DNA of 64,000 nt from a bacterium (GCA_965218795.1 OZ244653.1:32001-96000); one strand, 5' to 3'; numbered from the stretch's first letter, positions 45,398 to 61,860 are shown. Notes: generated by a model from the sequence alone, not told the origin. Numbers and translations: made by a program.

Positions 45398-46489
45398 CTA
45401 CTTGGGAATCTTACCCACGACGCCTTCAACAAAGAAGCTCATGCCGAGCATATCCTTGTCGGACATCTTGCCGGAGCTCTGACGGACCTTGCCCGTCTGG
45501 TCCTTGATGACCCCTTCGAAGACGTCGAACTTGCCCGCGATGATTTCGGCCTTCTTCTTGTTGACCCGGTCGCGAAGGGCCTGTGGAACCATGTTGCCGA
45601 AACTTGCGATTTTGATGATCCCCTCCTTCATGCTGCCCCAGTACTGGGTGGTCTTCCAGGTACCCTGACGGACCTGGTCGGCGACCAGTTTGTAGACGAC
45701 GCCCCAATCCCAGATGGGCGCTGTCAGGTGGGCCTTCGGCGCGAAGGAGGACATGTCGGAGTTGTAACCGATACTGTAGCGTCCCCGCTTCTGCGCAGCC
45801 TGCTGCGGCGCAGGGGTATCCTGGTGCTGGGCGATGACGTCCGCGTTGACGTCGAGCAGGCTCTCGGCTGCTTCCCGCTCCTTCGCCGGGTCATACCAGG
45901 TCTGCGTCCAGACCACCCGGACCTTCGCGGCGGGGTTGGCCGCACGCACGCCCAGCGCAAAGGCGTTGATGCCGCGGATGACTTCCGGAATCGGGTGCGC
46001 CGCCACATAGCCGACCACGTTGGATTTCGTCATCTTTCCCGCGACAATACCGGTCAGATACCGGGGCTGATACATCCGTCCGAAATACGTGCCCACGTTC
46101 TTGGCTGTCTTGAACCCTCCGCAGTGCATGAACACCACGTTGGGCGCCCGCTTTGCCACGTTGATCGTGGGGTCCATGTAGCCGAAGCTCGTGGTGAAGA
46201 TCAGGTTGTAGCCGCGGCGAACGTATTGTCGGATGACCCGTTCGGATTCGGCTCCCTCGGGGACGGATTCCGTAAAAGCCGTCGGGAGCACGAAGGGAAG
46301 CTTTTCCAAGGCCTTCCGCCCATTGTCGTGGGCAAGCGTCCATCCCGCGTCCCCCACCGGGCTCACGTAGACGAACGCCGCCTTGATTTTGGCCTGAGGC
46401 TTCAGGGCCTGAGCGCCGGGCGTCGGCGTCAGGGCCGCCAGAACGAGTCCGAGACTCAGAATGCCTAGAAGCTTCCATCGATGACTCAT
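45398..46489 (-). CDS. BMP family ABC substrate-binding protein
   Basis: Signal peptide, GDAGWTLAH, TSFGY, IPEVIRGINAF, WYDP, DVIAQH. Confidence 0.93.
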   Translation of the reverse strand: MSHRWKLLGILSLGLVLAALTPTPGAQALKPQAKIKAAFVYVSPVGDAGWTLAHDNGRKALEKLPFVLPTAFTESVPEGAESERVIRQYVRRGYNLIFTTSFGYMDPTINVAKRAPNVVFMHCGGFKTAKNVGTYFGRMYQPRYLTGIVAGKMTKSNVVGYVAAHPIPEVIRGINAFALGVRAANPAAKVRVVWTQTWYDPAKEREAAESLLDVNADVIAQHQDTPAPQQAAQKRGRYSIGYNSDMSSFAPKAHLTAPIWDWGVVYKLVADQVRQGTWKTTQYWGSMKEGIIKIASFGNMVPQALRDRVNKKKAEIIAGKFDVFEGVIKDQTGKVRQSSGKMSDKDMLGMSFFVEGVVGKIPK

Positions 46490-46914
46490 CGCTTTCTCCT
46501 CTCTGGAACAGGTGTTCGTTCCAATGGGGGCCGCTTTGAATCCGACCCCCGCTCTCCTCTGACTCGAGGATTCGAATGCTCCACCGGACGCCCCGGAGGG
46601 CACGATTCCGGCGGCAGCGTCCGATATCTTGGTGTCTCCTGATTTTTCACATATTAACATTATCCGGATGACGACAATTTCCGATGGGCGGGCCTCCGGA
46701 TAGGGACTCTTGAGGAAATCATGCCCGGGTCCGTTCCGTTACGCGGGGACTCCCGGATAGCTGGATGACCGCTTGTTGTCGAAAGCCGCCGCTCCAGGTC
46801 CGGGAATGAACGAGCTAAGGATTTGCGGTATTCTTGCGCGGACGGCGGACCACAAGTACAGGAGCATTGCTCCGGCTATCCGGTAGAAAACTGCCGAGAA
46901 GGACAGGTCGTCCA

Positions 46915-48600
46915 ATGAGCACGGCGACAACAGCGCGTGCACCCACCCTGATGGCTTCACCGCGGCGTCGGCTGTCCGCCTGGACGGTCACGCTATGGTG
47001 CCTCGGGGGGGGCATCGCCCTGGGGATTGTGCTTCCCACGGTATACTTGTTCGTCCGGTCCATGGACGGACCTCCGGCCGAATTCATTCATACCTTGTGG
47101 CGGCCCGTCGTCGGCCGTTACATGTTGAACACGCTCGGATTGACCGCCGTGACGACGTTTTGCGCCTGCGCTCTGGGGACGGTGGCGGCTTGGGTGATCG
47201 CCCGCTCGGACATTCCGGGGGCCAAAGGATGGACGGTCCTGTTGAGTCTTCCGCTGGCCGTTCCCTCCTACATCGGGGCCTATGCATACCTGGCGGCCTT
47301 CGGCCCGAATACGTTGATCGGCAAAACCTTGTTGACGCCACTGGGATTGACTCTCCGGGAAAGCTTCTGGGGCGCGGCCCTGCTGCTGACTTCCCTGACG
47401 TACCCTTATGTCATGCTGCCGGTTCGCACTCAGCTCTTGCGGATGGACCCCGGGCTGGTCGAGGCCTCCCGAAGCCTCGGCGTGGAAGGCTGGAAGACCT
47501 TTATCCGGGTGACGGTGCCTCTGCTGCGCCCCGCGATTGTGGCCGGGGGTCTGCTTGTTGCCCTCTATGTGATCAGCGATTTCGGGGCCGTGGCGATGCT
47601 GGAGTTCCGGTCGTTCACGTATGTGATCTTTCTTGAGCAGGAATCGCTGTTCAATCGGCAGCGGGCGGCTATCCTGGCGTTGCTTTTGGTCGCCCTCACC
47701 CTGGTCATCCTGGCGGTGGAGATGATGTGGCGGACTCGCGGGCGATACGAAGTGCGCGGGGTTCGCACCCTACTCTCCAGGCCGCGTATCCCTCTGGGGG
47801 TCTGGAAGGGTCCCGCAATCGCCCTCTGCGCTCTCATGGCGACGCTGGGGCTCCTGGTGCCGGCGGGGACGGTGGCCTATTGGTTCATTCAGGGCCTGGG
47901 AGACCCGACGCTTGACCTGAGCTGGGTCTGGAGGTCCACGTGGGATTCGGTTCAGGCCGCGATCCTTGCGGCTTCCGCCTGCGCCTTGGCGGCGATTCCG
48001 GTTGCGGTTTTGAGCGTCCGGCATCCGGGGAAGGGGAGTCTCCTGGTCGAGCGGGCGACCTATGCCGGTTTCGCCATCCCGGGAATCGTGGTCGCGCTGG
48101 CGCTGGTCTATTTCTCCCTTTTCCTTCCCCGGCAGGTGGAGTCTTTCGCCCGGTGGTGGGGATGGTCTCCTGAAACCGCGACGACCGTCTCGGGGGTTTT
48201 TCACTACTACCAGACCCTTCCGGTCCTCATTTTCGCTTATGTGGTTCTCTTCCTCCCGCAGGCCGTGGGCTCCACCCGCGCCTCCCTTCTTCAGGTTCCG
48301 AAGAACCTGGAGGAAGCCGGGCGCAGCCTGGGGCGGTCCAGCTGTACTGTGTTCAGGACCATCACGTTGCCTCTGGTGTTTCCCGGCGTATTGTCCGGGG
48401 GCGCCTTGGTCTTCCTGACCACGATCAAGGAATTGCCCGCGACCCTGTTGCTGAGCCCGATTGAATTCCGTCCGCTGGCCGCGATGGTCTTTGACCGGAT
48501 GGAGGATGCCTTTTTCGCAGAGGCGGCGGCACCCGCGCTGATTCTGCTTCTCTTCTCGATGTTGGCGATGATCGTCATCGTCAAACGGGAAGGCGTATGA
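46915..48600 (+). CDS. Fe(III) ABC transporter permease (FbpB/FutB-like)
   Basis: Duplicated permease with LPLAVPSY, EASRSLG, SDFGAV, KELPATLLL. Confidence 0.92.
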   Translation: MSTATTARAPTLMASPRRRLSAWTVTLWCLGGGIALGIVLPTVYLFVRSMDGPPAEFIHTLWRPVVGRYMLNTLGLTAVTTFCACALGTVAAWVIARSDIPGAKGWTVLLSLPLAVPSYIGAYAYLAAFGPNTLIGKTLLTPLGLTLRESFWGAALLLTSLTYPYVMLPVRTQLLRMDPGLVEASRSLGVEGWKTFIRVTVPLLRPAIVAGGLLVALYVISDFGAVAMLEFRSFTYVIFLEQESLFNRQRAAILALLLVALTLVILAVEMMWRTRGRYEVRGVRTLLSRPRIPLGVWKGPAIALCALMATLGLLVPAGTVAYWFIQGLGDPTLDLSWVWRSTWDSVQAAILAASACALAAIPVAVLSVRHPGKGSLLVERATYAGFAIPGIVVALALVYFSLFLPRQVESFARWWGWSPETATTVSGVFHYYQTLPVLIFAYVVLFLPQAVGSTRASLLQVPKNLEEAGRSLGRSSCTVFRTITLPLVFPGVLSGGALVFLTTIKELPATLLLSPIEFRPLAAMVFDRMEDAFFAEAAAPALILLLFSMLAMIVIVKREGV

Positions 48601-48688
48601 CGCCTGCTGCCATCCGATTCCAGCGAATTGTCCTGTCTTCATTCATGCGTGCGCATTCCTTATGAAAGATTCCCCGACAGACTGAGCC

Positions 48689-49792
48689 ATGAACTCATCT
48701 GCACGACAGACCGGGAAGGCCATCGTCCAGATGGAAAACGTCTGGATGCGATACGCCAGAGGTCAACCCTGGGCGGTGGAGGACTTGAGTCTCGAGGTCA
48801 CTCAAGGGGAGACCCTGACGCTGCTGGGTCCCAGCGGTTGCGGCAAGACATCTGTCTTGCGCCTGATTGCGGGATTTGAAGCCCCCCAGCAAGGCGTCAT
48901 CCGGATTGGCGGCAGGACCGTGGTCGGCGGAACGGAATGGCAGCCTCCCGAGCGGCGGGAGGTGGGCATGGTGTTCCAGGATTTGGCCCTCTTTCCCCAT
49001 CTCACGGTCGAGAAGAACGTGGCCTTCGGGCTGTACCGATGGACGGGGGAAAATCGCGAGGAACGCGTTCGCGAGGTTTTGCAACTGGTCAACCTGAACG
49101 GATTGCGGGGCCGGTATCCTCACGAACTTTCGGGCGGCCAACAGCAGAGGGTCGCTCTGGCGAGGGCCCTGGCGCCGAGCCCCCAGTTGATTTTGTTGGA
49201 TGAGCCGTTCAGCGGGTTGGACGCCGACATGCGCCGTCAGGTCCGCCGTGAGGTCAAGGAAATTCTCGCCCGATCGGGATTGACCGCCATCTTCGTGACC
49301 CACGATCAGGTCGAAGCGTTTGATTTGTCCGACAAGATTGCGGTCATGAATCGTGGGCGGATCGACCAGGTGGACAATCCGGAAAATCTGTACCATCACC
49401 CGGAGTCTCTTTTTGTCGCGCGATTTCTCGGCTTGGCGGATTTGATTCCGGGAAAGATTCGGGGAGAGCGGGTCGAGACGGCCCTGGGGAACTTCCTGTT
49501 CGTTCCGGTGGAAGATCCGCTGATCGAAGGCGCGCCGGTCGAGGTGATCATTCGACCGGCCGACGTGGATGTCATTCCCTCCGCGGACGGGGAGGCCTCG
49601 GTCGTCGCGAGGCACTTTCGGGGGTCGGACAACCTGTATACCATCACGCTCCCGTCCGGCGGGAGCGTCCGGAGTCAGACCCCATGGGATTTTATTCTCG
49701 ATCTCGGCACCCGGGTGACCATTACGGTCGAGCCCATGCGTGTGGTGATCTTCCCTTCGCTCCCGGAGGATGCGGGAGAGACGGGACCTTAG
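48689..49792 (+). CDS. Fe(III) ABC ATPase (FbpC/FutC-like)
   Basis: GPSGCGKT, MVFQDLALFPHL, LSGGQQQRVALARAL, C-terminal TOBE-like region. Confidence 0.92.
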   Translation: MNSSARQTGKAIVQMENVWMRYARGQPWAVEDLSLEVTQGETLTLLGPSGCGKTSVLRLIAGFEAPQQGVIRIGGRTVVGGTEWQPPERREVGMVFQDLALFPHLTVEKNVAFGLYRWTGENREERVREVLQLVNLNGLRGRYPHELSGGQQQRVALARALAPSPQLILLDEPFSGLDADMRRQVRREVKEILARSGLTAIFVTHDQVEAFDLSDKIAVMNRGRIDQVDNPENLYHHPESLFVARFLGLADLIPGKIRGERVETALGNFLFVPVEDPLIEGAPVEVIIRPADVDVIPSADGEASVVARHFRGSDNLYTITLPSGGSVRSQTPWDFILDLGTRVTITVEPMRVVIFPSLPEDAGETGP

Positions 49793-49991
49793 GAGAGCGT
49801 GCCTCCGCCCTTGCGCAGCCGGCCTGCTCGGAGCAAATCAACGACGCTCGCCTCGCGCATGAAGGCCATGGATATCAAAAAAACCGCCATCGTAACCCAC
49901 GGGTTCTCGATGGATCTTGAATCGATTCTGCGCCGGGGACACGCTGAATACGCCTTTTCGGGAAAGAGTTCAGTTTTTGCGATTTTTTTGT

Positions 49992-50023
49992 TTGACATGG
50001 CGCATTAAGTTAACTATAGTTAA
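49992..50023 (+). promoter_or_regulatory. Sigma70 promoter overlapped by a perfect palindrome (candidate DtxR-family operator)
   Basis: TTGACA (49992-97)-N17-TATAGT (50015-20); TTAACTATAGTTAA at 50010-50023. Confidence 0.8.
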
Positions 50024-50053
50024 TAAAATTGGATCAAGAGAAAAGGATTCGAA

Positions 50054-50602
50054 ATGTCTAACTCCCACAAGCGGTCCCCTGAAGTGCTCAGCCCGAGCCA
50101 GGAGCATTACCTCCGGGCGATCTGGTTGATTCAGTCCGAGAAGGGTTACGCCCGGGTCACGGATATCGGGAACGAATTGGGCGTCGCCAAGGCGGCTGTA
50201 TCAAACGCCGTCAAGACGCTCAGGAAAGAAGGTCTTGTCGATCACCGGCATTACGAACAGGTGTCGCTCACGGAGAAGGGGGTCCGTCACGCGCAGGAGA
50301 TCTCGAGTCGGTATGCAATCATCCATACCTTCCTGGAGGAAGTGCTGGGGGTGGAACAGGAGGCGGCGGTGCTGGATGCATGCCTGTTGGAACACTACGT
50401 CTCCGCCCCCACGATCGATCGTCTGATTGACCTCATTCGCTTTTTCGAAGTGGATAAAGAAAAGAAAGTTCTCGAACGATTCCGGGAATACCGGCGGGAG
50501 TGCGAAAGCGATGATTCCTGTCGCATCTGCAGTTTTCATTGTGACGTCCTCCTCTCGCCGGATGAATTGATTTCACCGGAGCTGCCGGGAGGTTCCAAGT
50601 GA
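50054..50602 (+). CDS. DtxR/MntR family metal-dependent regulator with Cys-rich C-terminus
   Basis: SQEHYLRAI, ARVTDIG..LGV, LTEKG, DACLLEH; tail CESDDSCRICSFHC. Confidence 0.92.
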   Translation: MSNSHKRSPEVLSPSQEHYLRAIWLIQSEKGYARVTDIGNELGVAKAAVSNAVKTLRKEGLVDHRHYEQVSLTEKGVRHAQEISSRYAIIHTFLEEVLGVEQEAAVLDACLLEHYVSAPTIDRLIDLIRFFEVDKEKKVLERFREYRRECESDDSCRICSFHCDVLLSPDELISPELPGGSK

Positions 50603-50808
50603 AGCGGGCGGAGGAGGAGGACTTGAAATTCCGGGCCGTCCTTCCGCCGAAGGGATCCGGGAAGCCGGAACCTGTTGGAAAAGACGCCCCGGAGAGCCTC
50701 GACGTAGCGGAAATTCTTCGGGGCAGGAGACGGATCAACCTGCTCCACGGAGGCGAAGTGTACCGCCTCCAGGTGACGAGACAGGGGAAACTGCTCCTGA
50801 CCAAATAG
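50599..50808 (+). CDS. hemP: Hemin uptake protein HemP/HmuP
   Basis: HGGEVYRLQVTRQGKLLLTK* C-terminal signature; GTGA overlap with the regulator. Confidence 0.92.
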   Translation: MKRAEEEDLKFRAVLPPKGSGKPEPVGKDAPESLDVAEILRGRRRINLLHGGEVYRLQVTRQGKLLLTK

Positions 50809-50836
50809 CCGGCGGAACCTGGAGCCGAACGAACCC

Positions 50837-50889
50837 AGCAAGCCACTTCAGCCTGAGTCGCGCCGATTCGGGATTGAGGAAGCAAGCCA
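50837..50889 (+). repeat. AGCAAGCCA direct repeats flanking a hairpin
   Basis: Copies at 50837-50845 and 50881-50889; intervening stem 50846-50879. Confidence 0.75.
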
Positions 50890-50925
50890 GGGAGATGTCC
50901 CGAGGGATATTCCCTGGCTTTTTTT
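50884..50925 (+). terminator. Intrinsic terminator/attenuator inside the iron operon
   Basis: AAGCCAGGGA.ATGTCC-CGAG-GGATAT.TCCCTGGCTT ending in a T7 run. Confidence 0.85.
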
Positions 50926-50988
50926 GTCCGTGGACTCCCGGAAGGACGGGGTAATCGGATTCGGGATGGGAAACAGGGGAGGGCCGCA

Positions 50989-51605
50989 GTGTCCGGTCAG
51001 ATCGAAGTTTCTTTGAAAAAGCTGGCCCTCTGCCCGAGAACCTCCCTCCCGATTCTGATTCTGGAATCGCTGGACGGAGCGAGGTTTCTCCCCGTGTGGG
51101 TGACGTACCCGGAGTGGGCGGTTTTTGCTCAGCAGCCGATGCAGGAGGTTGCCCTGGAGCCCGCGTTCTGGCCGATTGTCGTAGGGCTCCTGCGGGCCGG
51201 CAAGGCCAGCTTCGGGACGTGAGCATCGAGCGGGAGGGTTCGCGTTACATCGCCTGGCTCACCATCGAGGACGTCCAGGGGGAAAGGAAGCTCAAGACGC
51301 GGGCGGGCGAGGCCGTCGCACTGGCGGGGAAAGCGAATGCGCCCATTCGCGCACGCGTGGATCAACTCGTCGTCAGGGGTGTGATATTCCGGCGGGAACG
51401 GACGGAGACGGCCGCGAGTGGTCCGATTGGCTCAAGAAAGTCCGCCCAGCGGATTTCTCGGAATCCGGATGAAGGGAGGGAGGATAGACATCGGATTGGA
51501 AATGGCTTAGGGCGCAATAAAAAGGGGCTATCGGCAGCAGAACTGGGGAGTTCGGCCGATAGCCCCGGCACCGACACTTCGGGTCCGCCCCTCCGCGCCG
51601 GATGA
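50989..51605 (+). CDS. Divergent DUF151 (bifunctional nuclease-like) protein, 1-nt frameshift near 51204
   Basis: PILILESLDGARFLPVWV...LRDVSI...YIAWLTI...KTRAGEAVALA..ANAPI follows the DUF151 layout. Confidence 0.7.
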
Positions 51606-51680
51606 GTCCATTCTACCGGGCGTAGAACAAAAGGCCAACCGTCGCCGGGGCAGGCCCGCCTTTCAAGGGAGGTGGGTAGC

Positions 51681-53060
51681 ATGCACAGAGGGATCGTCGT
51701 AGGGATCGCGGTTGTTTGGCTCCTCAGCGGGATGGTGACGCCCCTACGGGCGCAGCAGAACGCGGAACTTTCAAAGCGCATCGAGACCCTGGAGAAGCAG
51801 CTTCAGGAACTCAAGAGCGAGTTGAAGAAACAGGCGGGGGCCGCCAGCAAGAAGGAAGCGGAAAGCCAGGAAAGAACCAAGACCCTCGGGGAGGAATTGG
51901 AATCGCTGAAACTCAAGGTGGCCCTGCCCGAGACCAAGGAGCTGAAAGGCCAATACGGTTTGGGTCCCGCGGCCTCCAAGGTTTATGGAGTCGAACGGGG
52001 TTTATCCATCGGTGGTTACGGGCAGGCATGGCTTCAAACCTATGTCGCGGACAACGAGGAGGCGAAGAAGGAGGACGTCTTCGATTACAAACGGTTCGTG
52101 CTTTATGTCGGTTACAAGTTCACGGACCGAATCATTCTGAACTCGGAGCTCGAATTCGAGCACGCGTCGACAAGTAATACAGGAGCCGGATCCGGCTCGG
52201 TCTCCGTGGAGTTCGCGTCTTTGGATTTCCTGTTGACTGACATATTCAATGTCCGGGCGGGAATGCTCCTTGTGCCCATGGGCTTTCTCAATGAACTCCA
52301 CGAGCCTCCGTTCTACCTGGGCAACGAGCGTCCGGAAGTCGAGCGCCAGATCATCCCAAGCACCTGGCGTGAGAACGGAGCCGGGATCTTCGGTACTTTG
52401 GCTCCGGGCCTGGAGTATCGCTCCTACCTTGTGACGAGTCTGGATGCGGCGGATTTCAAAAACAGCAACATCCGAAGCGCGCGTCAAAAGGGGAATCGGG
52501 CCAAGGCGGAGGACTTCTCCTGGGTCACCCGCGTTGATTACAGCCCACCGCAGATCCCGGGCCTCCTGGTCGGGACCTCTGTCTACTGGGGAGATCAAGG
52601 GCATTCTCTCAAGCACAATGGAAAAGAGCTTGATGTAGACATGCTCTTCTACGACTTCCACGCCCAGTATCAGCTTCACGGGCTTTATCTGCGGGGTCTG
52701 TTTACCCAGGCGCACATTGGCGACGCCGAACTTCTCAGCCGATTCAGGGGAAGTAACGGACCGATCAGCGAAAGAATTCAGGGATGGTACGTGGAGGCGG
52801 GTTATGACATTATGCCGCTCTTTGACCCCTCATCCAAACATGCCTTGATCCCGTTTTACAGGCATGAGGAGTACGATACCCAAGCGTCCGTCCCCTCCGG
52901 CTTCGTCCCCAAGGCGGGCAGGCACAAGATCGTCAACACGTTTGGGGTCAATTACAAGCCTCACCCGAATGTCGTCATCAAAGTCGATATGCGGCTCTTC
53001 GAGTCGAATAAAGGCACCGAGCCCGATGATTTCAACATCGGTGTCGGCTTCGCTTTCTAG
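51681..53060 (+). CDS. Outer-membrane beta-barrel (porin-like) with N-terminal coiled coil
   Basis: Signal peptide, heptad coiled coil, RFVLYVGYKF..SELEFEH, NELHEPP, C-terminal GVGFAF. Confidence 0.85.
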   Translation: MHRGIVVGIAVVWLLSGMVTPLRAQQNAELSKRIETLEKQLQELKSELKKQAGAASKKEAESQERTKTLGEELESLKLKVALPETKELKGQYGLGPAASKVYGVERGLSIGGYGQAWLQTYVADNEEAKKEDVFDYKRFVLYVGYKFTDRIILNSELEFEHASTSNTGAGSGSVSVEFASLDFLLTDIFNVRAGMLLVPMGFLNELHEPPFYLGNERPEVERQIIPSTWRENGAGIFGTLAPGLEYRSYLVTSLDAADFKNSNIRSARQKGNRAKAEDFSWVTRVDYSPPQIPGLLVGTSVYWGDQGHSLKHNGKELDVDMLFYDFHAQYQLHGLYLRGLFTQAHIGDAELLSRFRGSNGPISERIQGWYVEAGYDIMPLFDPSSKHALIPFYRHEEYDTQASVPSGFVPKAGRHKIVNTFGVNYKPHPNVVIKVDMRLFESNKGTEPDDFNIGVGFAF

Positions 53061-53075
53061 CGTTCCGGCGCCGAC

Positions 53076-53130
53076 AACGGGCTCCGGCCCGAGCCCCCTG
53101 GTTCATTCACGCCAAGGGCCGGAGCCCGTT
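53076..53130. repeat. 15-bp perfect inverted repeat after the porin gene
   Basis: AACGGGCTCCGGCCC / GGGCCGGAGCCCGTT; no U-tract. Confidence 0.75.
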
Positions 53131-53159
53131 CCACATTCCGGAAGAGAGAGGTCAACGGG

Positions 53160-53750
53160 ATGGAGCAACTGAAACTGACACACTTTTACTTCTGCAAGAA
53201 ATGTCCGGCCTATGAGGCCGTCTTCCAGCAGGTCGAGGGGGAAGGTGTGCTCCGAATCCCTCTGTCGATGCGCGAGCTAAACTTCGTCTGCCGGAGACCT
53301 TGTGAGGTGAGCGCTCCGCCGCCTCCGCTGGTTCGGACGGTCGGAGCCTTGCTGGACGGCGTCGGCCTTTCGCCCGACCGGGTGAGCCTGGACATTCGCG
53401 AGAGGGATATTCTGAGCGCCTATCTCCATCTGAATCGTCAGGCCAAAGGGGCAAGCGGTGGGCCGGGAACAGAGGAATCGATGGTTCCATTGCCGCCGGG
53501 CGATGGGGTTGTGATGAGCGTTTATTTCGGGGTGCCGTTCTACGCCCCCCGGGAATCACTCGTGAGTGCGGATGAGCTGGAAGAAAGACATGGGCTTCCG
53601 AAGGACTCCCTGAGGCCGGGAATGGAGGATGAGATCGTCTTTCACGAGGATGGGCGCCTCCATCCGAATGAGGAAGAGTTTCCGGCGGAGGGTCGAATCC
53701 GGGCGTGGCTCGACAAGCTTCGACCCGAAGATTTCCGATCCTCTCTTTGA
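53160..53750 (+). CDS. Second divergent DUF151-like protein with N-terminal CxxC
   Basis: CKKC, LRIPL, PPPLVRTV, SAYLHL, PPGDGVVMS...VPFY, tail WLDKLRPEDF. Confidence 0.65.
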   Translation: MEQLKLTHFYFCKKCPAYEAVFQQVEGEGVLRIPLSMRELNFVCRRPCEVSAPPPPLVRTVGALLDGVGLSPDRVSLDIRERDILSAYLHLNRQAKGASGGPGTEESMVPLPPGDGVVMSVYFGVPFYAPRESLVSADELEERHGLPKDSLRPGMEDEIVFHEDGRLHPNEEEFPAEGRIRAWLDKLRPEDFRSSL

Positions 53751-53791
53751 CGGCTCGGTTTTCCCCACTCCTTCATCAAGGGGGCGAAGAA

Positions 53792-54361
53792 GTGGCGGGA
53801 CGGTTGGGTGTATGCGTGACGCAAGGGGTGATTGCGGTGGGCCTGGTCCTGTCGTTTGGAGCCGGGACTGTCCGATCGGGCGTCATTCTGTCGAAAGAGG
53901 AGGCCTTGGAACTGGCCTTTCCCGGCGCCCACCGGGTCGAAAAGAAGACCTTTTTCCTCAACGCCGATCAGGTCAGACAGGTGGAAAAACTGTCCGGCGC
54001 AAAGTTGGATTCCAAGCTCTTCACGTTCTATGTGGGCATGAAGGGCGAACGAAGAATCGGTTATGCGGCCTTCGATGTTCATATCGTCCGCACTTTGCCG
54101 GAGGCCTTCCTGATCCTTCTCGCGCCGGACGGGAGCGTGAAGAATACGCTGTTGCTGGCCTTCTACGAGCCGAAGGAATACGAGCCGCCGGATCACTGGC
54201 TCCGTCAGTTCCGTGGCCGAACGCTTTCGCCGGAACTCCAGGTCGGTCGTCGGGTCCACGGCATTGCGGGCTCCACGCTGACCGCCTGGGCGGTCGCCCG
54301 CGCGGTCCGTAAGGTTCTGGCCCTCTATCAGGTCCTGATCGCCGGAGGCGAGGCACCATGA
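53792..54361 (+). CDS. Periplasmic FMN-binding domain protein
   Basis: Signal peptide, EALELAFPGA, HIVRT, AFYEPKEY, WLRQF, HGIAGSTLT (variant of the SGAT flavinylation motif). Confidence 0.85.
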   Translation: MAGRLGVCVTQGVIAVGLVLSFGAGTVRSGVILSKEEALELAFPGAHRVEKKTFFLNADQVRQVEKLSGAKLDSKLFTFYVGMKGERRIGYAAFDVHIVRTLPEAFLILLAPDGSVKNTLLLAFYEPKEYEPPDHWLRQFRGRTLSPELQVGRRVHGIAGSTLTAWAVARAVRKVLALYQVLIAGGEAP

Positions 54362-54873
54362 GGTTTGTCGTCACCGGCGAATGGAAGACCAACAGCCTGC
54401 TTCGACTCGTCATCGTATTGTTCCTGGGGTTTGCGGCGTTTCTCTGGCTGACGAACGCGCTCCTCTACTTCGCCAAGATGGGCCTGACGCCGGAATCCGT
54501 TGCGCAATATTACCGGGGAAACGAAGAGCGCTACCTCCGCCCGCGCAGCTATCTCATCCTGTTGGAAATTTCTCATTTCCACCTGTTCGCCATGTCCATA
54601 TTGCTTCTGACCTTGGGGCATTTGGTGCTTTTCGTGCCGATCCGCCCCCAATGGAAGGCGTGCTTGATCGTCGTCTCGTTCGGCTCCGCCTTTTCCGATG
54701 AAGCGATGGGGTGGCTCACGCGTTATGTCCATGCGGGTTTCGCCCTCGGAAAGATCATGTCCTTCCTTCTCCTGCAGGTTTCCCTGGCCGCCATGATCGG
54801 GATGATTTTCTACGGAACGATCAAGCCCCGCCGCAATGCGTATTCGGACCCATGGAAGGGGGAGAAACCCTGA
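54358..54873 (+). CDS. His-containing ~4-TM inner membrane protein
   Basis: Hydrophobic helices, EISHFHLF and LGHL; ATGA and TGATG overlaps with both neighbours. Confidence 0.8.
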   Translation: MRFVVTGEWKTNSLLRLVIVLFLGFAAFLWLTNALLYFAKMGLTPESVAQYYRGNEERYLRPRSYLILLEISHFHLFAMSILLLTLGHLVLFVPIRPQWKACLIVVSFGSAFSDEAMGWLTRYVHAGFALGKIMSFLLLQVSLAAMIGMIFYGTIKPRRNAYSDPWKGEKP

Positions 54874-55967
54874 TGGGATTCGCTGACGGAAAGAACATGC
54901 GGAGGCTTTCGAGGGTCTGTCTCCTGTTTCTCATGGCCGCGATCCCGGTCTCGGCTGCGGGGTCGGATGCCGCGCGGGGGCGCGTCCAGACGCAAGGCCG
55001 TATCGTCATGGGGACCGTCCTACGGATCACGCTGACCGAGCCCCGGCCGGGGAAGAGCGAGGCGATCTTCGAACGGGCCTTTCGCGAAGCGCGAAATCTG
55101 GACCTCATGCTGAGCCACTACCGCACCGACAGCGTACTTTCTCAATTGAACGCTTTGGCCGGGCAAAGGTCCGCCGAAGTGCCGGACGAGCTCTACCGGG
55201 TTCTACAGATGTCGGCGCGATTCAGCCGCCTGACGGAAGGGGCCTTCGACGTGACGCTCGGGCCTTTGTTTCGGGCATGGGAGCGCGCGGGCCGGTCCGG
55301 ACGCCTCCCGCAAGACCTGACGCGGACATTGCGGCGGGTCGGATGGCGCCACCTGGAATTTCAAGACAAGAACCGTGTCGGCCTGAGAAGGCGCGGAATG
55401 AGGCTGAACCTGGGCGCCGTCGGAAAGGGATTCGCGGTGGACAAGGTGATTGATGTCCTGCGCCGATCCGGAGTCTGCTGCGCCCTGGTTGATTTCGGGG
55501 GGAGCGCCTTCTTCGCCCTGGGCGCGCCTGACGGGGACCGGGCCTGGAACTTGTGGGTGCCCGGCATCGACGCGCAATCTCCCATCGGTGTGGTTTCGCT
55601 TCGGGATCAGGCCCTCTCCGTATCGTCCGCGTTCGGCAACAAATTCGTCATTCAAGGAAGGGTGTACGGGCATATCCTCGATCCCCGGACGGGCCGGCCG
55701 CTCACTCGGCCCGCTGTGGCCGCTGTCATCGCCCCGAGCGGGGCGGAAGCCGATGCCCTCTCGACCGCATTGCTGGTTCTCGGGCCCCGTCGTGGCCCTG
55801 CGGTTCTTGAGCGGTTCAAGGGCGTCCGCGCCCTGTATGACTCGGAGGCGGTCTCCTGGATCTCCCGTCCGATCACCCTATCGCCGGGGGCCGCCCCCGC
55901 TTGGCGCCCGGCAAAGGAGGACAACCCGGGACGACGGCCACCGCCCGATGTCCGATCGGAATCTTGA
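54873..55967 (+). CDS. apbE: FAD:protein FMN transferase
   Basis: MGT, S.LSQLN, GAFDVT, LGAVGKGFAVD, HILDPRTG, ADALSTA. Confidence 0.93.
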   Translation: MGFADGKNMRRLSRVCLLFLMAAIPVSAAGSDAARGRVQTQGRIVMGTVLRITLTEPRPGKSEAIFERAFREARNLDLMLSHYRTDSVLSQLNALAGQRSAEVPDELYRVLQMSARFSRLTEGAFDVTLGPLFRAWERAGRSGRLPQDLTRTLRRVGWRHLEFQDKNRVGLRRRGMRLNLGAVGKGFAVDKVIDVLRRSGVCCALVDFGGSAFFALGAPDGDRAWNLWVPGIDAQSPIGVVSLRDQALSVSSAFGNKFVIQGRVYGHILDPRTGRPLTRPAVAAVIAPSGAEADALSTALLVLGPRRGPAVLERFKGVRALYDSEAVSWISRPITLSPGAAPAWRPAKEDNPGRRPPPDVRSES

Positions 55968-56057
55968 GTCTTCCTGAAGGGGGCGACCCCACACCCGGTT
56001 TCCACTGTTGAAGTGGATACTCCAGAGAGCAACCGAACCCAAAAAGGAGAATGAGCG

Positions 56058-57116
56058 GTGAATCCTTGGAAGAACGCTCGACCGTTCGTCACATTGATTT
56101 CCCGACGGCATTCCTTTGCCGCGATTTTGGCCGCGGTCTGTATTCTGGCCGTCGGACCAAGTTCGGCCGGGTCCGAAGAAACCCTGACGATCTATTCCGG
56201 TCGCTCCCAGAAGCTGGTGAGCGGGCTCTTCAAGTCCTTTTCGGAAAAGACCGGCATCCGCGTGAAGGTCCGGTACGCGAAGACGGCGGCCCTGGCCAAT
56301 CAGCTCATGGAGGAGCGGTCCCAGAGCCCGGCCGATCTCTTCTTCGCGCAGGATTCCGGCGCATTGGGCGCCGTGGCCGGGCAGGGGCTGTTTCGACCCC
56401 TCCCCACGGACATCCTGAGTCAGGCGCCTCCCTCCTTCCGGTCCGAAAAAGGGGACTGGGTGGGTCTTTCGGGCAGGGCCCGTGTCCTTGCCTATTCCAC
56501 CAAACGTCTCAGCGATGGTGACCTGCCGAAGTCCATTTTCGACCTGACCGACCCCAAATGGAAAGGCAGAATTGGACTTCCGCCCACGAACGCTTCGTTC
56601 CAGGCCTTTGTGTCGGCGATGCGGATTCGCGTCGGCGATAAGAAGACCTTGGCCTGGCTGAAGGGAATCGTGGCGAATCAACCGAAGTATTACGTGAAAA
56701 ACACCCCCACAGTGAAAGCCATTGCAGACGGTGAAATCGATGTCGGACTCGTCAATCATTATTACCTGTATCGATTCATCCGAAAGGAGGGGCCGAAGTT
56801 CCCGGTCCGTAATTACTATTTTCCGAATGGAGACATCGGAGCCCTGATCAATGTCGCCGGAGCCGGGATCCTCAAGTCTTCCAGGAAGCCCTCCCAGGCG
56901 GAAAGATTCATCCGCTTCGTGCTGTCCCGGACCGGTCAGAAGATTCTGGTCGAGGGGAACAACGAATACCCCGTGGTCAAGGGGTTCCCGTTGAACCCCA
57001 AGCGGGGGCTTCGTGACGTTCGTGAGATCAAGACGCCCGGAATCGACCTCGGCAAGCTGACCGACGTGCGGGGAACCGTCCGTCTCCTCCAGCAGGCCGG
57101 GATGCTGCCCGAGTAG
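56058..57116 (+). CDS. Fe(III) ABC substrate-binding protein (FbpA/FutA-like)
   Basis: LTIYSGR, SPADLF, GRARV, NASFQ, VNHYYL Tyr pair, EYP. Confidence 0.92.
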   Translation: MNPWKNARPFVTLISRRHSFAAILAAVCILAVGPSSAGSEETLTIYSGRSQKLVSGLFKSFSEKTGIRVKVRYAKTAALANQLMEERSQSPADLFFAQDSGALGAVAGQGLFRPLPTDILSQAPPSFRSEKGDWVGLSGRARVLAYSTKRLSDGDLPKSIFDLTDPKWKGRIGLPPTNASFQAFVSAMRIRVGDKKTLAWLKGIVANQPKYYVKNTPTVKAIADGEIDVGLVNHYYLYRFIRKEGPKFPVRNYYFPNGDIGALINVAGAGILKSSRKPSQAERFIRFVLSRTGQKILVEGNNEYPVVKGFPLNPKRGLRDVREIKTPGIDLGKLTDVRGTVRLLQQAGMLPE

Positions 57117-57277
57117 AGGGCCCCTACCTTTCACCCAGTTGCACATCGGCTTCCAAGAGAGGGAGGCCATTGGTAAGAATCCAAAAGATAAACAGGAGAT
57201 CAAATGAGCGTTTGTATTCACGCCAACGCTTTGGGACCGGGTTCGTACGGTTGGCAGAACGAGAAAGGAGAGCACGC

Positions 57278-58537
57278 ATGAGAACCCTGACGAGAACCCT
57301 GATCGTGGCGGGCATCGCTGCCATGTTGGCCACCCCTGCCGCCGCCGTCGCGCCGGAGGCGGTCGTTACAACCTACGCCAATATCGCGGCGGCCGGATAC
57401 GCTGACTCGCTGGCGGCGGCGCGCGATCTGCGCGCGGCCGTCGGCGCCCTGGTCAAGGCCCCCTCGCCGGAGACGCTGGAAACGGCGAAGAAGGCGTGGG
57501 TGCGCGCCCGCGTCCCCTATCAGCAGACCGAGGTATTTCGTTTCGGCAACCCGATTGTTGACGACTGGGAAGGCAAGGTGAACGCTTGGCCGCTCGACGA
57601 GGGACTCATTGACTATGTCGATGCCGATCACGGCGGAAACGATGAAAACCCGTATGCGCGGGTGAACGTGATCGCGAACTCGACCTTCACCGTTTCGGGC
57701 CGCGAGATCGACGCGCGCGAGATCACCCCGGCGTTGCTTGAATCGCTGCATGAGATCGACGGGGTCGAGGCGAACGTCGCTACCGGCTACCACGCCATCG
57801 AGTTTCTACTGTGGGGGCAAGACCTGAACGGCACCGGCCCGGGCGCGGGCGCACGGCCCTACACCGATTTCGACGCTGCCAATTGCCCCAGCGGCAATTG
57901 CGATCGGCGCGCCGCCTATTTGATTGCGGCGACGGACCTGCTGGTCTCCGACCTCGAGAGCATGGTCGCGGCGTGGAAGCCGGAAGGCGCCGCGCGCAAA
58001 GCGGTCACCAAAAGTCCCCGGGAAGGCGTCGTCGCCGCCTTCACCGGCATGGGTTCGCTCTCCTACGGTGAGCAGGCGGGCGAGCGCATGAAGCTCGGAC
58101 TGATGCTCCACGACCCGGAGGAAGAGCACGACTGCTTCTCCGACAATACGCACAACTCGCACTACTACGACGGGGTGGGGGTCCGAAACGTCTATCTCGG
58201 CCGTTATGTGCGGATCGATGGGTCACTGGTGCGCGGGCCGTCGCTTTCGAACCTCGTCGCCGCCGCGGCCCCCGACGTCGACAGGGCGCTCCGCGCTGAT
58301 CTCGATGCCACGATGGCAGCGCTTGGAGCGATCAAGGCCACAGCGGAGGCGGGAACCGCCTATGACCAGATGCTGGGTGCAGGAAACACGGCAGGAGAAG
58401 CGCTGATCATGGCGGCCATTAACGCGCTGGTCGCGCAGACCCGTAACATCGAACGCGCGGTGGAGGCGCTGAGCATCCCGTCGATCGAATTCGAAGGCTC
58501 CGATAGTCTCGATAATCCAAGCGCGGTCTTCCAGTAG
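57278..58537 (+). CDS. Imelysin family iron-regulated protein (IrpA/IcmP-like)
   Basis: NAWPLDEGLIDYV, GYHAIEFLLWGQD, EEEHDCFSDNT. Confidence 0.93.
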   Translation: MRTLTRTLIVAGIAAMLATPAAAVAPEAVVTTYANIAAAGYADSLAAARDLRAAVGALVKAPSPETLETAKKAWVRARVPYQQTEVFRFGNPIVDDWEGKVNAWPLDEGLIDYVDADHGGNDENPYARVNVIANSTFTVSGREIDAREITPALLESLHEIDGVEANVATGYHAIEFLLWGQDLNGTGPGAGARPYTDFDAANCPSGNCDRRAAYLIAATDLLVSDLESMVAAWKPEGAARKAVTKSPREGVVAAFTGMGSLSYGEQAGERMKLGLMLHDPEEEHDCFSDNTHNSHYYDGVGVRNVYLGRYVRIDGSLVRGPSLSNLVAAAAPDVDRALRADLDATMAALGAIKATAEAGTAYDQMLGAGNTAGEALIMAAINALVAQTRNIERAVEALSIPSIEFEGSDSLDNPSAVFQ

Positions 58538-58611
58538 GGCTGCGAACGGTGAACCAAGGGTTGGGAACGGACGACCGGCACATGCCTTCTGACAACGACA
58601 GGGAGGTCGAA

Positions 58612-59679
58612 TTGCGTAAAAAGCTATTCTTTCCGCTCGTGATGGTGATGCTGTGGGTCGCTGTGCAGGCGCCTGCTTTGGCCCAAGAGACGGCCCAAAA
58701 GACGGCATTCCCACGCCTGGAGTGGTCCTTCGCGGCGGAGATCGAAAACGATTTCACCACTTCGGCGGATGATCCGGAGGCTGAGATAAACGATCTTTTT
58801 CCGACGATTGAACCCGCTTTGTCCCTGCGCTTGAACGAAGCGTTCAGTGTGAACGTGAGCGCCGTTATCGAGCCGGTGCTGGATCCGGTGGATGACCGTA
58901 CCTTCAAGGATATCGGCGGCTATGTCGATACGCTGTTCATGCAATACGAAAGCTCTATAGCGTCCATCGCCCTTGGAAAGCTCGGTGTCCCGTTCGGCGT
59001 TGCCTGGGACATCGCCCCCGGGATTTACGGTACCGGTTTCCCCGAGGATTACGAAACCGCCGAACAGATCGGCAGCGTCATCTCTGCTCCGATCCCGGTG
59101 TTGCCCGGTGTGCCGACGCTCTCTGTCTCGGCGTTCTTCGCCGATACGACGGCCTTGAGCGAATCGGTCGGGGAGAATCGCGGCCGGACGCGTAAGTCCG
59201 ACGGCGGAGTGGGCAACACGGAAAGCCTCGAGAACTTTGCGGTCTCGCTCGACGGCGGCCTTGCCGGTACGACCTATTCGCTCGGCTTCCGCCGTCTTGC
59301 CGCGGGCGAGGGCGATCCGGAAGACGAGTACGGCGTTGCATTCGGGCTCGCCCGTACCATCGACCTGGGCGAAGACATGAGCCTGGAGGCGCTTGGCGAG
59401 ATCGTCCATTTCATCAACACCGGAGGCGCCGCCGAGGAGAACTCCCTATATCTGACGCTCGGTGCTGCGCTTACGAAGGGAGATTGGACGGGATCGGCCG
59501 TCTATGCGCTGCGCAGCTTCGAAGACGCCAACACCGATCGCATGGCGACGGTCGGGCTCGAATACGCAATCGCGGAGGGCGTGAGCTTCGGCGTCGCCTA
59601 TCGCTACGGGCGCGAGGACGAGGAAATCTCACATATCCAGGGCGCGCTGCTGGCGGTGGAGTTCGAAGGTATCCTGTGA
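58612..59679 (+). CDS. Acidic outer-membrane beta-barrel (porin-like)
   Basis: GGGAGG RBS plus TTG, signal peptide, GK...FGVAWD, alternating amphipathic strands. Confidence 0.7.
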   Translation: MRKKLFFPLVMVMLWVAVQAPALAQETAQKTAFPRLEWSFAAEIENDFTTSADDPEAEINDLFPTIEPALSLRLNEAFSVNVSAVIEPVLDPVDDRTFKDIGGYVDTLFMQYESSIASIALGKLGVPFGVAWDIAPGIYGTGFPEDYETAEQIGSVISAPIPVLPGVPTLSVSAFFADTTALSESVGENRGRTRKSDGGVGNTESLENFAVSLDGGLAGTTYSLGFRRLAAGEGDPEDEYGVAFGLARTIDLGEDMSLEALGEIVHFINTGGAAEENSLYLTLGAALTKGDWTGSAVYALRSFEDANTDRMATVGLEYAIAEGVSFGVAYRYGREDEEISHIQGALLAVEFEGIL

Positions 59680-59817
59680 CATGAAGGGCGGTCGGCGGTC
59701 CTGAGACAGGGCCGCTGGGACGCCCTCCGCCGTCGCTCATGGCGCATCGCGCGGTATGCGATCCGTCGAGAAATTGAATTCCCTTACGGCGCGGTGGTGG
59801 TCTTCGGAGGCGTGCGC

Positions 59818-59990
59818 ATGCTCGTTTGCTCTTGCACTCTCATAGACGACCGGGCCATTCGCGCCACGGCGAAAACAGCGGGTTTGCGGGCGAGCCGCTC
59901 ACCTGCGGTGTCCTCTATTGCCGCTTGGGCAAGCGGATCCGTTGCGGCAATTGCCGGCTGCTAATGATAAGGATCATCGATAAGTTTCAC
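59818..59990 (+). pseudogene. Bfd-like [2Fe-2S] ferredoxin, frameshifted and reading into the di-heme gene
   Basis: GGAGG RBS, MLVCSCTLIDDRAIR. One added G at 59888-90 gives GEPLTCGVLYCRLGKRIRCGNCR. Confidence 0.75.
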
Positions 59991-61517
59991 GTACGCAGCT
60001 TAGCCTACCCGAGTGTCGCATTCACGCTCATCCTCGGAGTTGCGGCCGCATCCGTCGCCGCGCCTTTGGAGGATCCGCATCTTATTACGGTCCCGCGCAC
60101 CGAGGCGGAGGCCGATCGCATCGCGGCGGTCGTCGCTCCGACGGAAGACTTTACCAAGCCCGAACGCTACGAGAAGCGTCCGGGGGGCGCCGCGACCAGC
60201 TTCAAGCGCGTCAACAGCGACGTGTTTTCCCATGCCTCTGCCAACATGCCGTTCGAACGGGAGTTGCGGTTCCAGGTCGGCAACGGATTCTTCAGAAAGC
60301 TCTGGGTCACTGCCCCGGCCTCGACGCAGGCCAGCGACGGCCTGGGTCCGCTCTACAACGCGCGCGCCTGTCAGCGCTGCCACATCAAGGATGGCCGCGG
60401 CCATCCGTCGGACGGCGATGTGAACAGCGTCTCCATGCTCTTGCGCCTGTCGATTCCGAGGGGCGAGAGTGATCTATCGACGGAGCGCCTCGCCCGTCTC
60501 GGCGCGGTGCCGGAACCGACCTACGGAACCCAGCTTCAAGACCGCTCCATCCCCGGTGTGCCTGCCGAGGGACGTATGGCGATGGAGTATGAGGAGTTCA
60601 CGGTCGAGCTCGGCGGAGGGGAGCGCGCGACGCTGCGCCGCCCGACCTATCGAGTCATGGACCTGGGCTATGGGCCGCTCCATCCCGAGACCATGCTCTC
60701 ACCCCGCGTCGCGCCGCCGATGATTGGACTCGGCCTTATCGAGGCGGTACCAGAAACGGACATCCTCGCCGCCGCCGATCCAGAGGACGCCGACGGAGAC
60801 GGGATCTCGGGACGACCCAACCGTGTTTGGAGCGCCGAGTTCGGACAGTGGATGCTCGGGCGCTTTGGCTGGAAAGCCGGGGCACCGACCGTGCGCGCGC
60901 AGTCCGCTGGCGCGTTCTCGGCCGACATCGGGCTGGCGACTTCGCTCCATCCTGACGGCTGGGGCGAATGCACACCGGCGCAGGCGGCCTGCCGCGCCGC
61001 ACCGCATGGCGGCTCGCCGCAATACGCCGGTCTTGAAGTGCATGACGAAGTGCTCGACCTGGTGACCTTCTATGCGCGCAATCTCGCGGTTCCGGCACGG
61101 CGAGACGTGGGCGGCGCACGGGTGTTACGGGGCAAGACGTTGTTCTACCGATCCGGGTGTGCGCAATGCCATCGTCCGAAATTTGTGACCCATCGCCTCG
61201 CCGACCGACCAGAGCAGAGCTTCCAGCTCATCTGGCCATATTCGGATTTTCTGCTGCACGACATGGGCGAGAGGCTTGCCGACGGCCGGCCGGAATGGAG
61301 CGCCACTGGCCGCGAATGGCGCACCGCGCCACTTTGGGGAATCGGACTGACCGAGACCGTCAACGGCCACAGCTTTTTCCTGCATGACGGCCGGGCGCGC
61401 TCGTTGCTTGAGGCGGTCCTCTGGCATGGCGGCGAGGCGGAGGACGCGAAGGAGCGAGTGCGGCGGATGGAGCCCGAGGATCGCAACGCGCTCATCACTT
61501 TTCTGGAGTCGCTGTGA
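59964..61517 (+). CDS. Di-heme oxidoreductase family protein (DUF1111/IrpB-like); start uncertain
   Basis: DGLGPLYNARACQRCH, GRFGWKA, CAQCH, EWRTAPLWG, LHDGRAR, WHGGEA. Confidence 0.93.
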   Translation: MIRIIDKFHVRSLAYPSVAFTLILGVAAASVAAPLEDPHLITVPRTEAEADRIAAVVAPTEDFTKPERYEKRPGGAATSFKRVNSDVFSHASANMPFERELRFQVGNGFFRKLWVTAPASTQASDGLGPLYNARACQRCHIKDGRGHPSDGDVNSVSMLLRLSIPRGESDLSTERLARLGAVPEPTYGTQLQDRSIPGVPAEGRMAMEYEEFTVELGGGERATLRRPTYRVMDLGYGPLHPETMLSPRVAPPMIGLGLIEAVPETDILAAADPEDADGDGISGRPNRVWSAEFGQWMLGRFGWKAGAPTVRAQSAGAFSADIGLATSLHPDGWGECTPAQAACRAAPHGGSPQYAGLEVHDEVLDLVTFYARNLAVPARRDVGGARVLRGKTLFYRSGCAQCHRPKFVTHRLADRPEQSFQLIWPYSDFLLHDMGERLADGRPEWSATGREWRTAPLWGIGLTETVNGHSFFLHDGRARSLLEAVLWHGGEAEDAKERVRRMEPEDRNALITFLESL

Positions 61518-61860
61518 ATACACGTCCGGTGTTCGCGCTCCTGCTCCTGTTGTCCGCGAGCGGCGCAGCGGCTGAGTCATGTGCGGACATCGCTGTGATC
61601 GTCGACCGGACCGCTGTGAGTGTCGTGCTTCCAGCCTTCGGCGGGTTCAAGCGCGCCGCGTCGGACCCTTACACGTACTGACCCCATAAGGTGCGAGAGA
61701 CGGCTCGGCGGACGCCGCGCGGGCCGCTTACGCCGCAGCCTATGACGCCTGGATGCGAGTGGAGGTCTATCGCTTCGACCCGGTCGAGGACCAGAACGCC
61801 GTGTCGCGCGTCAACTTCTGGCCGGTCGCGATGAACTATGTCGGCCGCGCACTGGGGGGT
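61514..61860 (+). pseudogene. Truncated second imelysin-family gene (IrpC-like)
   Basis: GTGA overlap, signal peptide, stop at 61679-81, then ARAAYAAAYDAWMRVEVYRFDP...VNFWP; similarity is lost after ~61860. Confidence 0.75.

Follow-up and report, generated by a model that had tools for sequence, protein, structure and literature searches.

A conserved module of a porin, an FMN_bind protein, a four-helix membrane protein, and ApbE is apparently linked to iron uptake and stands in one bacterium behind a DtxR- and HemP-type regulatory layer

ApbE, a flavin adenine dinucleotide (FAD):protein flavin mononucleotide (FMN) transferase, is linked to several extracytosolic systems of iron assimilation, described as PepSY-like, MsrQ-like, DsbD/DUF3570, NQR/RNF-like, and P19-FTR1 (Meheust et al. 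2021, PMC8238504). DUF4405 and FezC are flavinylation-associated cytochromes; heme b was shown for both, and the heme sites of FezC were modeled via homodimerization (Huang et al. 2024, PMC11334425). For cyanobacteria, a model has been described in which iron enters through a porin, is reduced in the periplasm, and is taken up by FutABC, with the reductant ascribed to a respiratory oxidase (PMC7676907). Here, we analyzed a bacterial DNA stretch of 64,000 nucleotides (nt) (GCA_965218795.1 OZ244653.1:32001-96000; referred to as the window) from a genome of 5.17 Mb that is 98.9% complete. The block under study, at positions 49992 to 57116 of the window, had been read in an earlier note as one new system of iron acquisition. 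Our comparison supports a porin, a periplasmic FMN_bind protein, a four-transmembrane (4-TM) protein with conserved histidines, and ApbE as a conserved module linked to iron uptake, which in this organism stands behind regulators of the DtxR and HemP families.

All eight co-oriented genes of the block were confirmed on the plus strand. The module consists of genes for an outer membrane porin (51672-53060, with a likely start at ATG 51681; similar to Atlas Porin_O_P-like clusters with a score of 0.97), a periplasmic FMN_bind protein of the RnfG/NqrC type (53792-54361), a 4-TM inner membrane protein assigned to PF27139 (Aq_1264_TM) by precomputed and Atlas annotation (54358-54873), and ApbE (54873-55967; PF02424, E = 1.8e-64). 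The FMN and membrane genes overlap by ATGA and the membrane gene and apbE by TGATG, so the coupling of these three genes is as it had been described before. We surveyed 84 loci anchored on the membrane protein or the FMN protein and counted each trait only where the flank was sufficient. Of 77 loci, 76 had the FMN gene next to the membrane gene; a porin gene preceded the core in 31 of 37, and 27 of 28 contained apbE; moreover, four homologs of the membrane protein are fused to ApbE (P0124-6, P0156). Of 34 long loci, 27 (17 of 21 clusters at 85% identity) have genes for iron uptake, storage, or regulation within approximately 7 kb, which bears out the earlier claim that this core is tied to iron uptake. 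The neighbors in these 34 loci included ferritin or bacterioferritin in 9 loci, FbpABC in 7, FTR1, P19, Fur, DtxR/IdeR, and a TonB receptor in 5 each, imelysin/DHOR, located after the core, in 4, and a multicopper oxidase in 3. Fur-box-like palindromes occurred in 14 of 53 loci of at least 3 kb, a count made without a shuffle control; a Fur-box matrix built from other loci gave no strong site in the window (best, 8.2 bits). A profile of the module matched 842 proteins in a library clustered at 50% identity, and the module was present in 41 of 201 genomes of one other phylum. Since different iron regulators and different importers accompany the core across the loci, the module is a portable unit.

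In the window, the operon appears to be composed of two layers of different origin, a phylum-native dtxR-(hemP)-fbpA unit and the inserted module. An ortholog of the short DtxR/MntR-family repressor gene (50054-50602; PF01325/PF02742) was found in 48 of 51 genomes of the host phylum, and of 31 other phylum genomes examined, 28 have fbpA next to it; the membrane gene was found in just 2 of 49. G003, a genome of the same family, has the order fbpB-fbpC-dtxR-hemP-fbpA with the leader directly before fbpA and without the module; therefore, the cassette was either added in the lineage of the window or lost in that of G003. In another genome, G002, the module follows dtxR-fbpABC-P19, and three other genomes (L073 = L176, L177, and L178) have hemP close to the core. 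DtxR, HemP, and the DUF151-like genes had been taken as integral to one system with the core, but this did not hold: dtxR-(hemP)-fbpA occurs phylum-wide without the core, the core stands elsewhere behind Fur boxes, Fur, or IdeR, and one of the DUF151-like genes is broken. Since relatives carry dtxR-(hemP)-fbpA without the core, DtxR and HemP were ruled out as defining parts of the module; the DtxR/HemP layer is a local graft on it and does not define a new system.

Taken alone, the FMN_bind-like protein of the window is under the Pfam cutoff (E = 0.094). A profile of its family, made of 74 rows (the query and 73 of 120 listed homologs), matched RnfG of A. woodii (9ERI) with an E value of 7.9e-10 and aligned AGST of the window protein with TGST of RnfG, in which Thr185 bears the covalent FMN (PMC11889175). 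The protein has a signal peptide, as judged by eye, and is thus a secreted FMN_bind protein with a motif like [S/T]GA[S/T]; the flavinylation motif is present in 119 of the 120 listed homologs. We strongly predict from this alignment that ApbE flavinylates Thr162 (codon at 54275-54277), the Thr of AGST that the earlier note had already singled out. The porin has a signal peptide, a coiled coil, and a barrel with a terminal Phe, and its residues Glu159, Glu161, Glu163, His164, His210, and Glu211 are kept in at least 95% of the rows.

The membrane protein was modeled with four helices (predicted local distance difference test [pLDDT], 81). C-terminal fusions to PilZ and to the DtxR metal-binding (DtxR-C) and FeoA domains occur among its homologs (P0164, P0148), from which we infer a cytoplasmic C terminus; this orientation would place His73 and His75 on helix 2 near its periplasmic end, with His88 toward the cytoplasmic end. 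In single-domain homologs, His73 is present in 90 of 102 rows, His75 in 95 of 101, and His88 in 94 of 101. In 18 tandem-duplicated homologs these residues are divided: the N-terminal half keeps His73 only (18 of 18), and the C-terminal half keeps His75 and His88 (18 of 18 each), with His73 in only 2 of 18. This complementary loss suggests that two neighboring units share a cofactor, most simply heme b, with one contributing His73 and the other His75, and makes the protein a candidate oligomeric cytochrome b. When the flavoprotein was modeled in complex with two membrane subunits and heme, the prediction scored 0.33 (best control, 0.00), with contacts that agreed between runs by at least 80% and a partner pLDDT of at least 82. 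This supports the arrangement weakly; in the calibration, 116 of 157 solved complexes reached the mark, as did 2 of 215 mismatches, and only 18 solved complexes together with both mismatches were found at 0.60 or below.

Fold searches with the monomer and with a natural tandem homolog (pLDDT, 91) returned generic helical bundles only and no heme-bearing structural relative, which speaks against a cytochrome. The best redox matches, all within background, were the quinol-dependent nitric oxide (NO) reductase 8zgp (Z = 8.1; root mean square deviation, 4.2; 202 residues) and heme A synthase (Foldseek E = 0.14). The match to NO reductase extends over both halves and presumably recalls the His-x-His second helix of the heme-copper oxidase repeat; we take it as a lead only. 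A profile of the tandem homologs found no solved relative, and the scanned library gave no Pfam-A match at an E value of 0.1, including PF12801, PF01794, PF03929/PF16357, PF02683, and the NqrB/RnfD and DUF4405 types. A distant paralogous module was seen in L179 to L182 and L186 (e.g., L182:3459-6313), with a BBP2 porin, a PF27139-like protein without His88, a degenerate FMN_bind protein, and no apbE. In this module apbE, the flavinylation motif, and His88 are all lost, and therefore the three traits travel together; His73 and His75 are kept. Two of the five loci examined lie beside Mo/W or Zn ATP-binding cassette (ABC) genes (ModA/TupA-like in L179 and ZnuA in L182). The paralogous module ties His88 to the redox version, yet it keeps alive a metal-binding role for His73 and His75.

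The block starts with a sigma-70-type promoter, TTGACA-17-TATAGT (49992-50020, + strand; 11 of 12 consensus matches), and the palindrome that had been claimed to cover it is indeed found at 50010-50023, overlapping TATAGT. It lies in the predicted operator of the DtxR-family repressor, TGTTAA-N6-TTAACA (50008-50025, unstranded), over the -10 box. This pattern was found with at least 10 of 12 positions upstream of 29 of 29 orthologs tested (shuffled mean, 0.57; maximum, 5); its seed was picked by eye from the tested sequences, and the site in the window was outside the training set. The window site ranks first in the genome with the genomic background and second with an AT-rich background, and the 14-bp palindrome is the only site within two mismatches in 5.17 Mb. 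A global regulon was ruled out, since the operator matrix revealed no other convincing iron-related target genome-wide and the exact pattern occurs once in three of five relatives and not at all in the other two.

The repressor has His18, Cys110, Glu113, and His114 as well as the C-terminal Cys150, Cys156, Cys159, and Cys163, all of which are invariant across the 39 rows compared, from 32 genomes. Cys110 aligns to Glu99 of MntR, and Cys in place of this Glu is a trait of iron sensors (PMC10317159). In G015, feoB follows hemP in the dtxR locus. The sole Fur-family match in the host genome sits between znuA and znuCB-like genes, and this only Fur-family protein looks like Zur. The repressor of the window likely senses iron, as judged from its residues and neighbors. 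Against this stand the first position of the primary site, which is His18 and not Met (Met10/Asp8 in DtxR/MntR), the degenerate ancillary site, and two genomes outside the 29, G002 and G005, that have no operator by the matrix. Pfam gave no FeoA match in the repressor, and a C-terminal SH3/FeoA domain was not found. The repressors of the window (50054-50602) and of L105 to L133 carry an invariant C-x5-C-x2-C-x3-C tail, which is possibly a Zn or Fe-S site, and there is apparently one operator per genome. The host genome has a second, longer DtxR-family gene, which has a FeoA domain and precedes the gene for a di-heme peroxidase-like protein of 653 amino acids (L104:5873-7831).

The gene for a regulator of the HemP/HmuP family (50599-50808; PF10636, E = 1.6e-13) is coupled to dtxR by a GTGA overlap. 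Directly after it, two repeats (50834-50846 and 50882-50893, + strand) resemble the published HmuP-responsive element (HPRE), which was reportedly defined by Amarelle in 2019. HPRE is described in section 25 of PMC9131926. With a pattern taken from the published element and these loci, HPRE-like repeats were detected after hemP in 9 of 13 loci of a first set (Markov mean, 0.8) and, within the Methylomirabilota phylum, in 22 of 30 (mean, 2.5; reverse strand, 1); one of the 30 is identical to one of the 13. The repeats are part of a leader RNA (50834-50925, + strand; fold z = -4.2) that ends in an intrinsic terminator at 50884-50925, just where an internal terminator had been proposed. Repeat 2 is the 5' arm of the terminator, a hairpin forms between the two repeats, and the same layout is present in G003. 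Because the second repeat is the terminator arm, HemP likely acts as an antiterminator. Thus, the earlier proposal of a two-tier control gains sequence evidence for both tiers, the operator at 29 of 29 promoters and the HemP element that overlaps the terminator.

Three points speak against antitermination by HemP: the overlap with a terminator was seen only in the host family (0 of 30 hemP loci of the Methylomirabilota phylum), G002 and G005 keep the terminator with the repeat though no hemP was found there, and in other species HemP is reported to bind DNA as an activator or repressor (PMC9241770). HemP antitermination was not described in the literature searched, which was mostly open literature; the terms "terminator" and "antitermination" have no occurrence in PMC9131926, and HemP is absent, by term search, from a 2025 review of antiterminators (PMC12591593). 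In two loci of the same family (L107 and L108 of G004 and G006), a hemP-like remnant and an interrupted terminator were seen by eye between dtxR and fbpA, which suggests joint decay of the protein and the RNA element. L145 to L174, from the phylum recorded as Methylomirabilota, have hemP beside FTR1 or bacterioferritin genes and repeat-hairpin-repeat leaders before varied genes, some of them ExbB-like by eye. In the window, neither a TonB-dependent heme receptor nor hmuTUV was found as a HemP target among the genes scanned at 45398-61517. HemP regulons reach beyond heme receptors. The block was correctly said to lack a TonB-dependent receptor and hmuTUV, but four TonB receptors are encoded elsewhere in the genome.

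The operon encodes a ferric ABC importer. The periplasmic binding protein (56058-57116) has retained the tandem Tyr, and its earlier label, FutA, was right as to a ferric-binding protein but not as to its kind, for it is closer to FbpA of Vibrio, Thermus, and Pseudomonas (phmmer E = 6e-96 to 7W3W) than to cyanobacterial FutA (E = 2e-47). The genes for the permease FbpB (46834-48600, + strand; PF00528 in two repeats; start codon uncertain) and the ATPase FbpC (48689-49792, + strand; PF00005 and TOBE_2) lie directly upstream, outside the original span, and had been missed, as had the imelysin/porin/Bfd/DHOR genes directly downstream of the block. In same-family genomes fbpB is syntenic with dtxR/fbpA, and FbpC is 71 to 82% identical to neighbors of the dtxR orthologs; with the FbpA-like protein, the permease, and the ATPase, a complete FbpABC is encoded.

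We favor, with little better than even confidence, an iron starvation operon of two layers, in which a native repressor/FbpABC layer is combined with a porin/flavin/heme cassette that frees iron for import. The metal-loaded DtxR-family protein, probably with Fe2+, would repress the operon by binding the palindrome that covers its own -10 box. Upon iron starvation, dtxR and hemP would be transcribed, and HemP would bind both repeats of the nascent RNA, block the 5' arm of the terminator, and allow read-through to fbpA. Iron or small iron chelates would enter via the dedicated porin without TonB, ApbE would attach FMN to Thr162 of the periplasmic protein, and the 4-TM protein, as an oligomer in which heme b is held by His73 and, from the neighboring unit, His75, would link the flavoprotein to the membrane pool through electron exchange. 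The flavoprotein would then alter the redox state of iron, most likely by reduction of Fe3+, which would free iron from chelates or colloids, and FbpA would catch the iron, either reoxidized or as Fe2+, for import by FbpBC.

Several findings weigh against this proposal. No FeoB_C, FTR1, or Nramp match was found in the 98.9%-complete genome, and FeoB of a relative found nothing in the host genome or in the 84 core loci. Weak FeoB_N matches were rejected as FeoB, since they had no FeoB_C partner, and were read as other GTPases; ZIP-family matches are the only candidates left in the genome for an Fe2+ importer. Therefore, reduced iron must be reoxidized, bound by FbpA as Fe2+, or imported by ZIP, and the missing Fe2+ importers weaken a plain model of reduction followed by Fe2+ import. 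Of the earlier claim of a TonB-independent, redox-coupled uptake, the conserved module tied to iron stands, a dedicated Fe2+ importer was not found in the genome, and we infer the direction of electron flow and the heme. In addition, the importers beside the core are ferric or oxidase linked (FbpABC in 7, FTR1 in 5, P19 in 5, and multicopper oxidase in 3 of the 34 long loci), which would fit oxidation as well, and 7 of the 34 have no iron gene at all.

If electrons flowed in the reverse direction, the module would oxidize porin-borne periplasmic Fe2+ to Fe3+ for FbpA or FTR1 and donate the electrons to the quinone pool, in place of the oxidases of Ftr/Efe systems but independently of O2. The ferric-type importers that adjoin the core in the surveyed loci, the lack of any Fe2+ importer but ZIP in the genome, and the conserved acidic and His residues of the porin, which suit a cation, would be in line with this. 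However, three loci have a separate multicopper oxidase, and the FMN that ApbE binds to proteins of the RnfG/NqrC type is of low potential and would be a poor oxidant of Fe2+, so we regard oxidation as unlikely. The membrane protein might also not be a cytochrome: His73 and His75 could form a metal site and, together with the partner of FMN_bind fold, serve to sense, chaperone, or transport a metal, with the flavin being secondary. The paralogous module keeps both residues without apbE or the motif and beside ModA/TupA-like or ZnuA genes, and no heme-protein fold was matched above background; nevertheless, apbE and the motif are nearly always retained in the main family and the complementary His loss in the tandem proteins fits a two-ligand cofactor between subunits, which leaves a metal site improbable in our estimate.

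Still less probable is an iron-regulated periplasmic redox system that is coregulated with iron import but does not feed it and serves another purpose, such as repair or maturation of envelope proteins, an iron-sparing flavin route that replaces cytochromes, or reduction of other small solutes. The long loci without iron genes (7 of 34), the free variation of the importer partner, and the fact that most relatives in the phylum run FbpABC without the module would agree with such a purpose. A dedicated porin in 31 of 37 loci implies an external solute, however, and the module is found repeatedly inside importer operons (FbpABC, FTR1, P19). Finally, in sequence the repressor is best matched by short MntR proteins, and the operon might answer to manganese or another metal rather than to iron. 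We consider this very improbable in view of the Cys that replaces the Glu99 ligand of MntR, the downstream genes for FbpA, FeoB, and HemP, and the second, longer DtxR-family gene in the genome. Beyond the iron starvation operon favored here, we tentatively propose, and hold to be doubtful as a whole, that PF27139 is a new class of membrane cytochromes, a stand-alone four-helix unit that is possibly akin to one repeat of subunit I of heme-copper oxidases and NO reductases and is oligomeric with heme between its subunits. With the covalent flavoprotein and its own porin, it would form a widespread, TonB-independent route of reductive iron mobilization that uses the importer and regulator of each lineage and is gated here by a Cys-tailed iron sensor of the DtxR family and by HemP as an RNA-binding antiterminator.

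Two DUF151-like genes had been reported as a pair in the block, but only the second one is intact. The first, divergent DUF151/BFN-like gene (50989-51472) has two 1-nt frameshifts, near 51210 and 51375, as seen by three-frame translation, and its middle piece matches PF02577 with an E value of 0.02. The same breaks are present in contigs of three of four sequencing runs (X2, which may be the source study, and X5 and X6, which are other studies), and the diverged strain X9, the fourth, has one extra base at both sites. Since the breaks recur in contigs from other studies, assembly errors were ruled out, and the gene is a real strain-level pseudogene. A second copy of its N-terminal piece (63% identity) is located at G000:C1:2651713-2651907. 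The intact gene (53160-53750) encodes a divergent protein without a Pfam match that is related to the L073 protein (BLAST E = 2e-8), itself a member of PF02577 (E = 1e-11); both copies of the window are below the PF02577 cutoff and are tied to the family via homologs above it. The DUF151-like proteins have a common C-terminal WL..(V/L)(K/R)P.DF. The order hemP-repeat-DUF151-like gene recurs in L073, L151, and L159, and a DUF151-like gene precedes apbE in five loci of the first locus set; a role in the RNA turnover of the operon would be a guess.

A perfect 12-bp inverted repeat (51524-51566) lies 5' of the porin gene with an A run before it and may terminate the opposite strand, and a perfect 15-bp inverted repeat without a U tract (53076-53130), between the porin gene and the second DUF151-like gene, may stabilize the porin transcript. 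Downstream of fbpA, the same iron island continues with genes for imelysin, a second porin, a Bfd-like protein, and a DHOR di-heme protein (57278-61517, + strand; Pfam), whose cotranscription with the block is only conjectural. Their G+C content at third codon positions is above that of the cassette, and they form a second iron uptake unit of the island. At 62096-63598, a ModA-like binding protein is fused in one frame with a permease. No Rfam family was found at 46000-62000, and no plasmid match was found.

No paper on the module, on aq_1261-1265, or on PF27139 was found in a search that was limited mostly to the open literature and did not include the large cluster tables of Meheust et al. 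(2021), which may list such loci unassigned; a term search of PMC12052999 gave no description of the module either. The module is carried by many environmental Gram-negative lineages. If the proposal is true, it would represent a common TonB-independent iron route and provide a new membrane electron carrier for ApbE-flavinylated proteins. The 92-nt leader with a HemP element over a terminator bears on the unsettled mode of action of HemP/HmuP, and antitermination, if true, would give this family a concrete mechanism. The locus also yields a specific prediction for the cofactor site at His73/His75, and both handles are testable without the organism.

How does the locus compare with known systems? 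Like the regulators HemP, HmuP, and ChuP, the small regulator here heads an iron-repressed operon and is followed by direct repeats as in the published chuR element (PMC9131926, PMC9241770); unlike them, as far as these papers were covered, it precedes genes for a ferric ABC system and a flavin module rather than a heme receptor, is under DtxR-family control, and has a repeat that is a terminator arm. The repressor shares with DtxR/IdeR and MntR the winged helix and dimerization domain, Cys, Glu, and His in the primary site, and a palindromic operator over the promoter (PMC10317159), but it differs from the forms described in the covered part of that source by the lack of SH3/FeoA, His in place of Met10/Asp8, the four-Cys tail, which is invariant, and a strong operator that apparently occurs once per genome. 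The small membrane protein beside apbE with conserved His resembles DUF4405 and FezC (PMC11334425); it has no DUF4405 match, however, and its three His are on a single helix, in contrast to the four central His reported in the available portion of that paper, and its heme is a prediction. With the systems of Meheust et al. (PMC8238504) the module has in common ApbE, a secreted FMN_bind substrate, and a His-bearing membrane protein near iron importers and iron regulators. It differs from them by its membrane protein, PF27139 with 4 TM helices and HxH-x12-H, which matches none of the Pfam families named in the portion of their paper available, by a ferric ABC importer, judged against the same portion, and by the dedicated porin, a term with no occurrence in PMC8238504. 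With the cyanobacterial model it shares porin entry without TonB, a periplasmic redox change, and capture by a Fut/Fbp ABC system, and relative to the covered account of that model, only the locus described here adds an ApbE-flavoprotein and a dedicated membrane partner. Set beside these systems, the module appears to be a real, uncharacterized variant of ApbE-linked iron assimilation.

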